Origin: Candidatus Magasanikiibacteriota bacterium | Lineage (GTDB): Bacteria; Patescibacteriota; Patescibacteriia; Magasanikbacterales; GWA2-37-8 | NCBI GenBank assembly: GCA_041678665.1 | Contig: JBAYNU010000001.1 | Span: 80,996-144,995 of the forward strand | Direction: 5' to 3' | Length of the DNA stretch: 64,000 bases | Program-made: the position numbers and the translations under genes | In this document: positions 3,870 through 3,998 of the stretch, one piece after another | How the letters are laid out: every line of letters starts with the position of its first letter | Position numbering within the stretch: the stretch's first letter is position 1 | Notes under the pieces: generated by a model | Databases searched by the model: none | What the model was told of the DNA's origin: nothing | The model's input: the letters and a program-made list of their open reading frames with translations, nothing else

Positions 3870-3898
3870 TTGACAATCTGAACCTTTCTTGCTAAAAT
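3870..3898 (+). promoter_or_regulatory. Consensus sigma70-type promoter (TTGACA-N17-TAAAAT)
   Basis: TTGACA at 3870..3875, a 17-nt spacer, then TAAAAT at 3893..3898. No protein-coding gene follows on the plus strand for ~1.9 kb. The promoter reads into the hairpin at 3914..3995. Confidence 0.45.
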
Positions 3899-3904
3899 AT
3901 CCGT

Positions 3905-3998
3905 ATACAAATTAAAGACCCTGAGTGTGTTTGGCAATGGCAATAGCGTCCCCTCCTTCGCTTTTGTCCATCTGCCGGACACACCCAGGGTCTTTGTG
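3905..3998 (+). ncRNA. Candidate small RNA: promoter-proximal 17-bp hairpin enclosing a 48-nt loop
   Basis: AAAGACCCTGAGTGTGT (3914..3930) pairs with ACACACCCAGGGTCTTT (3979..3995) with one mismatch. The loop contains GTCCCCTCCTTCGC (anti-SD-like CCTCCTT). CTTTGTGTT follows. I cannot assign a known RNA family. Confidence 0.3.

Follow-up and report, generated by a model that had tools for sequence, protein, structure and literature searches.

What is made from a strong promoter that no gene follows? Such a promoter lies at positions 3870 to 3898 of a 64,000-nucleotide stretch of DNA from a Candidatus Magasanikiibacteriota bacterium (the window, part of the 149.6-kb metagenome contig k141_344560, ENA ERZ27247350). 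It is followed by a long hairpin with a C/U-rich apical loop, and both are located between the gene for ribosomal protein L20 (rplT) and an intrinsic terminator at 4079-4103. A first-pass annotation had read this as an orphan promoter driving a hairpin RNA of about 90 nt with an anti-Shine-Dalgarno-like loop, and the core of this reading is strongly supported by conservation in about 140 loci. On comparative grounds it is near certain that promoter and hairpin form a real RNA gene. We consider its product, with a probability of about one half, to be an independently transcribed, self-terminating small regulatory RNA (sRNA) of about 95 nt, the C/U-rich loop of which would pair with rare Shine-Dalgarno (SD)-like sites. 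The element is the founding example of an RNA family without a model in Rfam 15, the members of which come from Magasanikbacteria and Patescibacteria related to them.

The promoter and the hairpin

The element consists of the following parts.

3845..3853, minus strand: DnaA-box consensus, a perfect 9-mer (TGTGGATAA on the plus strand, TTATCCACA on the minus strand) ending 17 nt upstream of the -35 box
3870..3898, plus strand: sigma-70-type promoter TTGACA-N17-TAAAAT, with the -35 box at 3870-3875, the -10 box at 3893-3898 and TG at 3890-3891 (extended -10)
3905..4000, plus strand: predicted primary transcript of about 95 nt, with a short A/U-rich 5′ leader, the hairpin and a U-rich tail
3913..3996, plus strand: long imperfect hairpin, with about 35 base pairs, small bulges and a single A-C opposition (3925/3984)
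3949..3958, plus strand: apical loop UCCCCUCCUU of 10 nt in the minimum-free-energy fold
3951-3958, plus strand: loop core CCCUCCUU, which contains CCUCCUU
3993..4000, plus strand: U-rich tail UUUGUGUU, which shares bases with the end of the stem; hairpin and tail together have the form of an intrinsic terminator

The promoter had been called the best of the window. It is a very good one, but it shares the first place: 11/12 hexamer matches are reached by only five sites in the 64 kb, and only two of these have the TG extension. The observation that no plus-strand gene follows for about 1.9 kb is right, the next one being the cyclophilin gene at 5833. The element would be transcribed from a start placed 7 nt after the -10 box to a 3′ end placed in the U-rich run past the stem.

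The two stem arms (3914-3930 and 3979-3995) are complementary with a single mismatch (A3925/C3984), as had been described, and neither 17-mer occurs elsewhere in the window. The 48-nt loop that they were thought to enclose had to be given up, since the enclosed bases are themselves paired (GGCA/UGCC, AUGG/CCAU, CAA/UUG, AGCG/CGCU) up to the 10-nt apex. The minimum free energy of the hairpin is −50.6 kcal/mol compared with −20.9 ± 2.9 kcal/mol for shuffled sequences (z = −10.4), and none of the 200 shuffles was as stable.

Conservation and covariation across relatives

A search with the L20 protein of the window against one genome per species yielded 80 loci. According to L20, the closest named relatives are Candidatus Magasanikbacteria and other Patescibacteria (Candidate Phyla Radiation, CPR), with about 60-77% identity. 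The same promoter and hairpin are located directly after rplT and on the same strand in most of these loci (nhmmer). A covariance model built from 51 sequences matches the window at 3908-4001 with 92.9 bits (E = 1.7e-26) and has 62 full-length matches among the genome loci (55-96 bits); loci of Saccharibacteria, Microgenomates, Kaiserbacteria, Uhrbacteria and similar groups gave no match to it. A context-free pattern scan of metagenome contigs identified 84 stretches, 82 of which are full-length model matches (62-98 bits). Several of the hits are from Hainich, Rifle-type and other JGI samples. For about 35 metagenome copies the L20 protein of the host is only about 50-55% identical to that of the window and 55-62% identical to that of any named locus in the comparison, which shows that the family extends well past the immediate relatives. 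Altogether, promoter, hairpin, U-tract and loop are conserved in about 140 loci and the stems carry compensatory changes. Conservation of hairpin and promoter in related genomes had been proposed as a check, and both are indeed kept in the 62 genome and 82 metagenome loci.

In the alignment of the 62 genome-derived sequences, which was fitted to the covariance model, 91% of the cells are standard-paired and 31 of the 32 pairs are changed on both sides (337 cells). None of 500 shuffles reached any of the five covariation measures, and slid partners were paired in only 32-51%. The signal is also present in a plain MAFFT alignment made before the model fit (83% paired, 30 of 32 pairs compensatory), and RNAalifold independently found 28 pairs, of which 27 are compensatory.

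Both sets score higher with the model on the plus strand (55-98 bits) than on the minus strand (30-56 bits). Pairing is 91.0% on the plus strand versus 83.4% for the complement, and G-U cells are more frequent than A-C cells (193 versus 44). Together these differences identify the plus strand as the functional strand. They also bear on the possibility that the locus is a mobile or repeated DNA element (a palindrome of the MITE or REP type) or a DNA cruciform linked to the DnaA box, because a G-U pair would be a C-A opposition on the other strand or in DNA. The long inverted repeat, the TGTCAT repeats on either side of it in the window and the adjoining DnaA box would fit such an element. REP and MITE elements have many dispersed copies at variable sites, whereas there is one copy here in 64 kb, syntenic across the approximately 140 loci and mostly fixed after rplT. 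In addition, the element is absent from viral contigs, many relatives have no TGTCAT repeat between rplT, promoter and hairpin, and the uniform GC skew does not indicate an origin. We therefore regard a mobile element or cruciform as extremely unlikely. The proposed co-mobilisation with the TGTCAT repeats fails likewise, since the RNA is single-copy and syntenic and the repeat is missing from this interval in so many relatives. A phage origin was rejected as well: the 67 pattern matches in viral contigs are all chance matches, and none has a match to the covariance model.

The source annotation places a 91-aa open reading frame (ORF) at 3749-4024 on the minus strand, which extends over the entire sRNA and overlaps with two TGTCAT repeats; it has no Pfam match and is not conserved. 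Among the relatives, stop-free spans over the hairpin can be as short as 21 aa or as long as 114 aa, and the stem covariation is incompatible with coding; a protein-coding function was thus rejected and the ORF is almost certainly a spurious call. If the alignment and the covariance model were entered in databases of RNA families, spurious protein calls such as this one would be removed as well.

The promoter is conserved as well. In the 130 distinct family members, the -35 box is exactly TTGACA in 117, the TG of the extended -10 is present in 93 and the promoter score is at least 10/12 in 109. The stem starts about 11-23 nt 3′ of the -10 box in these copies and is followed by a run of U. Like an sRNA gene, the element is intergenic and has its own promoter (in about 90% of the 130 copies) and its own terminator (hairpin and U-run).

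A DnaA box (at most one mismatch to TTATCCACA) is located within 45 nt upstream of the -35 box in 84 of the 130 distinct copies (65%), where the background rate of such boxes in these loci would predict 2.3%. Most of these boxes are in plus orientation and end 8-10 nt from the -35 box; a minority, including the one in the window, is inverted and located at about 17 nt. Since the box stays with the promoter even where the promoter is 100-190 nt away from rplT, it belongs to the RNA gene. A consensus box positioned at the promoter is what is found at DnaA-regulated promoters, and DnaA may bind at 3845-3853 and control the promoter. A replication origin, which a DnaA box could also suggest, was rejected: the GC skew is uniformly negative across the window, so the locus is no origin, and there is only a single box. 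DnaA-box-like 9-mers (TTATCCACA with at most one mismatch) are over-represented in the whole window (43 versus 17 ± 4 expected, none of 100 shuffles as high); they are mostly located inside genes, and perfect copies are found at 3845, 13455, 37345 and 49262.

The end of the element has the properties of an intrinsic terminator: in most relatives the stem base GGNCCUG/CAGGNCC is followed by 5-8 U. The tail is cleaner in the relatives than in the window, where the tract at the same place is weaker, and some read-through is therefore plausible. This raises the question of whether the hairpin is a purely cis-acting 3′ element, that is, a terminator or 3′-end stabiliser of infC-rpmI-rplT and an insulator before the tRNA-Asp gene, with an incidental promoter. 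Its position would agree with that, as the RNA is located after rplT on the same strand in 62/62 genome loci and 71/84 metagenome loci (the exceptions are mostly contig ends). Furthermore, the G+C-rich stem base precedes a U-run, and in most relatives no other terminator-like structure separates rplT from the gene that follows. Assignment to the terminator class leaves the promoter and the invariant loop unexplained: a near-consensus promoter immediately upstream in about 90% of the copies means that transcripts would begin just before the hairpin, and a terminator does not need an invariant loop. The stem of about 35 bp far exceeds those of typical terminators, and the RNA retains its promoter in the six loci where it follows genes other than rplT. 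A purely cis-acting element is thus unlikely.

The loop and its possible partners

The apical loop with the core CCCUCCUU is the only extended part of the RNA that is both single-stranded and invariant in sequence. CCUCCUU is present in all 62 genome-derived sequences, the core in 60 and the full loop CCCCCUCCUU in 40, and the pair closing the loop varies (G-C in 30, A-U in 26, U-A in 5). The sequence CCCTCCTT occurs a single time in the window, at 3951-3958, with a chance expectation of 1.33; its significance comes from its conservation in the relatives, since the count in the window alone is at chance level. We take CCUCCUU to be the canonical sequence of the bacterial 16S rRNA 3′ tail (anti-SD). 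In a subfamily (L006, L010, L017-L019, L021, L025, L035 and L041 in alignment A3) the 5′ arm beside the loop reads AAGGAGGAAAC, which is SD-like. It pairs with UUUCCUCUCCU in the 3′ arm, resulting in an internal SD/anti-SD-like duplex besides the loop motif UACCCUCCUU.

According to the reading we favour, the strong sigma-70 promoter, usually with a DnaA box just upstream of the -35 box, would produce an RNA of about 95 nt that is essentially one long hairpin. Hairpin and U-tail would end its own transcription and probably also terminate that of the upstream infC-rpmI-rplT operon. The RNA would most likely be a trans-acting antisense RNA that acts through base pairing of its loop to SD-like, purine-rich stretches (AAGGAGG[G]) in ribosome-binding sites. 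Its targets would be the few mRNAs that have SD-like sites in an SD-poor lineage. Pairing would block initiation or trigger cleavage, as seen for the C-rich loops of Hfq-independent sRNAs. Among the three functions that had been considered at first (small regulatory RNA, decoy for SD-containing leaders, co-mobilised element), the regulatory RNA is the best supported.

How many SD sites are available for such pairing? Among the 53 long ORFs listed for the window, only one is preceded by GGAGG; overall, SD sites are used by 1-2 of 54 genes there. In the relatives an SD-like tetramer precedes rplT in 3/67 and infC in 8/67 loci; the leaders of the ribosomal-protein and IF3 genes are A/U-rich. Other CPR loci are also without an SD sequence before rplT, and two non-CPR loci (Spirochaetia, Rickettsiales) have AAGGAG there. 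A link between the presence of the RNA and SD loss was rejected, because CPR lineages without the RNA likewise have no SD sequence before rplT and there is no specific correlation. Since the lineage hardly uses SD sites, a role as a general SD decoy is unlikely; the decoy function that had been proposed is possible, but not for leaders in general. For the same reason, any pairing partners would form a small special set. Sites complementary to the loop are rare enough for specificity.

A strong match to the loop at a ribosome-binding site is present in only two genes of the window, which are candidate targets of the sRNA. One is the gene for an M29 family aminopeptidase, the leader of which (GGGAGGAA) has a calculated pairing energy with the loop of −12.8 kcal/mol. 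The other is a 97-aa ORF with a perfect SD sequence in its leader (AAAGGAGGAG, −11.3 kcal/mol).

6655-6948, minus strand: 97-aa ORF (MFEWWKKRKAAQ...), with a promoter TTGACA-17-TAGATT including TG at 7049-7021

Several points weigh against an sRNA that pairs with SD-like sites. No recurrent target was found among the SD-like sites in 910 kb of relatives (5-15 kb each), and the SD-led genes there are heterogeneous (PPDK-like, pilin-like, small ORFs). In the window, 7-mers complementary to CCCTCCTT are neither enriched nor depleted. The identity of the loop to the anti-SD sequence rests on the general bacterial consensus, which we assume to apply here, rather than on the 16S rRNA of this lineage; none of the loci of relatives examined for its 3′ tail contains a 16S gene. 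The U-tract of the window itself is imperfect. Finally, the sequence of the mid-stem GUGUUUGG/CCGAACAC varies less than pairing alone would demand, a hint of a protein partner.

This mid-stem, together with the failure to find a conserved target, prompts the main rival explanation, that the RNA binds or sequesters a protein. The C/U-rich loop, perhaps together with the mid-stem, would be the recognition site, and the RNA would titrate or deliver the protein. The protein could be a KH- or S1-domain factor or one that normally recognises the 3′ tail of 16S rRNA; the neighbouring operon offers IF3 or a ribosomal protein as further candidates. Invariance of the loop across hosts with only about 50% identical L20 proteins fits a recognition site as well as a pairing seed. 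Columns 23-30/86-93 of the mid-stem are mostly unchanged (G-C in 61/62, U-A in 53/62), while the apical and basal stems covary freely. The RNA is also tightly linked to genes of translation (infC-rpmI-rplT, tmRNA/smpB) and to tRNA-Asp, and a conserved mRNA target was not found in the short flanks of the relatives. On the other hand, co-variation or co-localisation with the RNA is seen for no candidate protein outside the rplT operon, which is universal, the L20-leader model of Rfam does not match, and C-rich anti-SD loops have well-documented roles in pairing. Protein binding is a real but tentative possibility, less probable than the antisense sRNA.

A further reading is that a lineage which has largely given up SD-led initiation makes, with this RNA, an abundant and free-standing copy of the anti-SD tail of its ribosomes. 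It could compete with 16S rRNA for SD-like sequences and thereby selectively silence or tune the few SD-led mRNAs, or it could be a decoy for a factor binding the 16S 3′ tail. We consider this rather unlikely. If it were true, the silenced SD-led mRNAs could be recently acquired or foreign, or a few highly expressed ones (for example pilin-like), and the DnaA-box promoter would tie such a translational filter to replication or growth status.

Patescibacteria are uncultured and genome-reduced and have few transcription factors. Very little is known about RNA-based regulation in this group, and our literature search found no description of sRNAs from Patescibacteria or Magasanikbacteria, nor of SD usage in that group. 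A well-supported, widely conserved candidate sRNA family with about 140 instances in CPR bacteria offers a testable seed (CCCUCCUU) and, with the DnaA box, a candidate regulator. As its loop copies the anti-SD sequence in bacteria that rarely use SD sites, it is also an entry point to how SD-independent lineages deal with the SD-led genes they have left and to what keeps the anti-SD sequence conserved.

Known RNA families and the genomic neighbourhood

The 4227 families of Rfam 15 were compared with the whole window at gathering thresholds, and with the locus and 20 diverse members at E values up to 10 or 5. The only real matches in the window are tmRNA and tRNAs; the hairpin drew chance-level matches to a miRNA precursor and to rliE. 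The covariance-model comparison that had been suggested (signal recognition particle (SRP) RNA, 6S RNA and other families) thus places the hairpin in no Rfam 15 family. SRP RNA, 6S RNA, the L20 leader, Bacteroidales-1, RsaE and the cuckoo models were each rejected, having no match in the 21 members.

Could the RNA nevertheless be a highly divergent housekeeping hairpin RNA such as SRP 4.5S or 6S? It shares with SRP 4.5S RNA the size, the single-hairpin shape, the strong promoter and a place among stable-RNA genes, with tmRNA upstream and tRNA-Asp downstream. A canonical SRP RNA was not seen elsewhere either: a regular expression for the SRP RNA motif had no match in the window or in 1 Mb of relatives, where only about one would be expected by chance. 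Nevertheless, neither the SRP (RF00169/RF01854) and 6S models nor any other Rfam model matches the 21 diverse members at E values up to 5-10. The apex is a 10-nt C/U loop, and the GNRA tetraloop and the conserved symmetric and asymmetric helix-8 internal loops of SRP RNA are missing. 6S RNA (about 150-200 nt, RF00013/RF01685) has a large central bubble mimicking an open promoter, which is absent here, and the RNA is only half as long (about 95 nt). A housekeeping RNA is therefore very unlikely. The L20 leader (RF00558) belongs to the 5′ leader of the operon it regulates and imitates the binding site of L20 on 23S rRNA, whereas our element is located 3′ of rplT and has its own promoter.

The closest parallel is found in the cuckoo/αr14 sRNAs of Alphaproteobacteria (CcsR1-4, NfeR1, SmelC397 and others), which have ultraconserved anti-SD loops (CCUCCUCCC) on covarying stems and for which occlusion of the ribosome-binding site is the proposed or shown mode of action (PMC4615179, PMC10746234). 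The family is defined by two to four adjacent stem-loops, each with a CCUCCUCCC loop (PMC4615179). Our RNA resembles them in its ultraconserved C/U-rich anti-SD-like loop (CCCUCCUU instead of CCUCCUCCC), in stems that vary by compensatory mutation (31 of 32 pairs) and in being an independent sRNA gene in a conserved neighbourhood; occlusion of ribosome-binding sites would be a shared mode. One relative also has a tandem arrangement: at L011 3083-3175 there is a second sRNA copy (66 bits) with the variant loop UCCUCCUCCUU; an inserted TGTCAT-type repeat separates its hairpin from the promoter-like site. In contrast to the cuckoo RNAs, ours is a single hairpin of about 35 bp that doubles as a terminator and has the loop (C/U)NCCCUCCUU. 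It also differs in the motif, the phylum (Patescibacteria instead of alphaproteobacterial hosts), the DnaA-box-associated sigma-70 promoter, the lack of an Rfam match, the SD-poor host and the lack of any sign of an Hfq context. The element is analogous and not homologous to cuckoo/αr14 and lies outside that family.

The sRNAs with C-rich loops from Firmicutes (the hairpins of Staphylococcus aureus RNAIII, RsaE/RoxS) pair with the SD sequences of their targets without Hfq, often followed by RNase III cleavage. Their mechanism would plausibly suit a CPR cell poor in chaperones, but there is no sequence or structural homology, their Rfam models are not matched and their hosts use SD sequences generally. 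Bacteroidales-1 (RF01693) is a structured RNA of unknown function. It is often encoded 3′ of the gene for L20, and its phylum likewise relies little on SD sequences. It is larger, has a different structure and belongs to a different phylum; its Rfam model gave no match, and the parallel is positional only.

The genes and signals around the element are as follows.

1414-1857: smpB
1941-2343, plus strand: tmRNA gene (119 bits), directly 3′ of smpB and 5′ of infC, with a promoter at 1910-1938
2502-3047: infC
3127-3351: rpmI
3402-3746: rplT (L20)
3761-3797, 3811-3842 and 4019-4049: TGTCAT-family repeats flanking the element
4079..4103, both strands: bidirectional intrinsic terminator (9-bp stem with 6 G-C pairs, T-runs on either strand)
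4276-5409, minus strand: convergent M29 aminopeptidase gene
5639-5712, minus strand: tRNA-Asp
5833-6600, plus strand: cyclophilin gene

The terminator at 4079-4103 ends the convergent M29 peptidase gene and is probably also a back-stop against read-through from the sRNA. The block smpB-ssrA-infC-rpmI-rplT-sRNA-tRNA-Asp appears to be conserved, and in several relatives the 3′ end of tmRNA abuts the infC start. The first tRNA downstream is nearly always tRNA-Asp(GUC), which in 60 cases lies no more than 500 nt away and on the same strand. The window departs from this order: a segment with the M29 gene intervenes and the tRNA-Asp is inverted. A function of the RNA as leader or attenuator of tRNA-Asp was rejected, because in the relatives a separate TTGACA promoter for the tRNA immediately follows the U-run of the hairpin, and the tRNA of the window is 1.6 kb away on the other strand. 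The segment from about 4100 to 7150 has a GC content of 0.47 compared with about 0.40 and contains the M29 peptidase gene, the inverted tRNA-Asp, the cyclophilin gene and the 97-aa ORF. It looks like an insertion or inversion, since most relatives have tRNA-Asp directly behind the sRNA and in the same orientation. The window's two SD-led genes are both located inside it.

The element had been described as sitting between two arms of a TGTCAT repeat. Flanking repeats are present (3761, 3811 and 4019), but they are not inverted arms: all three have the same orientation and are direct copies. Two of them are inserted between rplT and the sRNA promoter, and the repeats here look like later insertions into the spacers. 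They belong to a REP-like intergenic family with a consensus of about CTGTCATYCYGAGCG..GAAGRATCCC, which has 14 copies in the window versus 1.4 expected.

3068, 3129, 7139, 11714, 11830, 12628, 12689, 39517, 39615 and 52482: further copies of the repeat

Each repeat is a small hairpin, the stem of which covaries between copies (ATTCT/AGAAT, ATCCT/AGGAT, ATTCC/GGAAT). The copies are often located as inverted pairs between genes, and variants are also found in relatives (for example L011 3061-3080 and 3215-3250, and L014).

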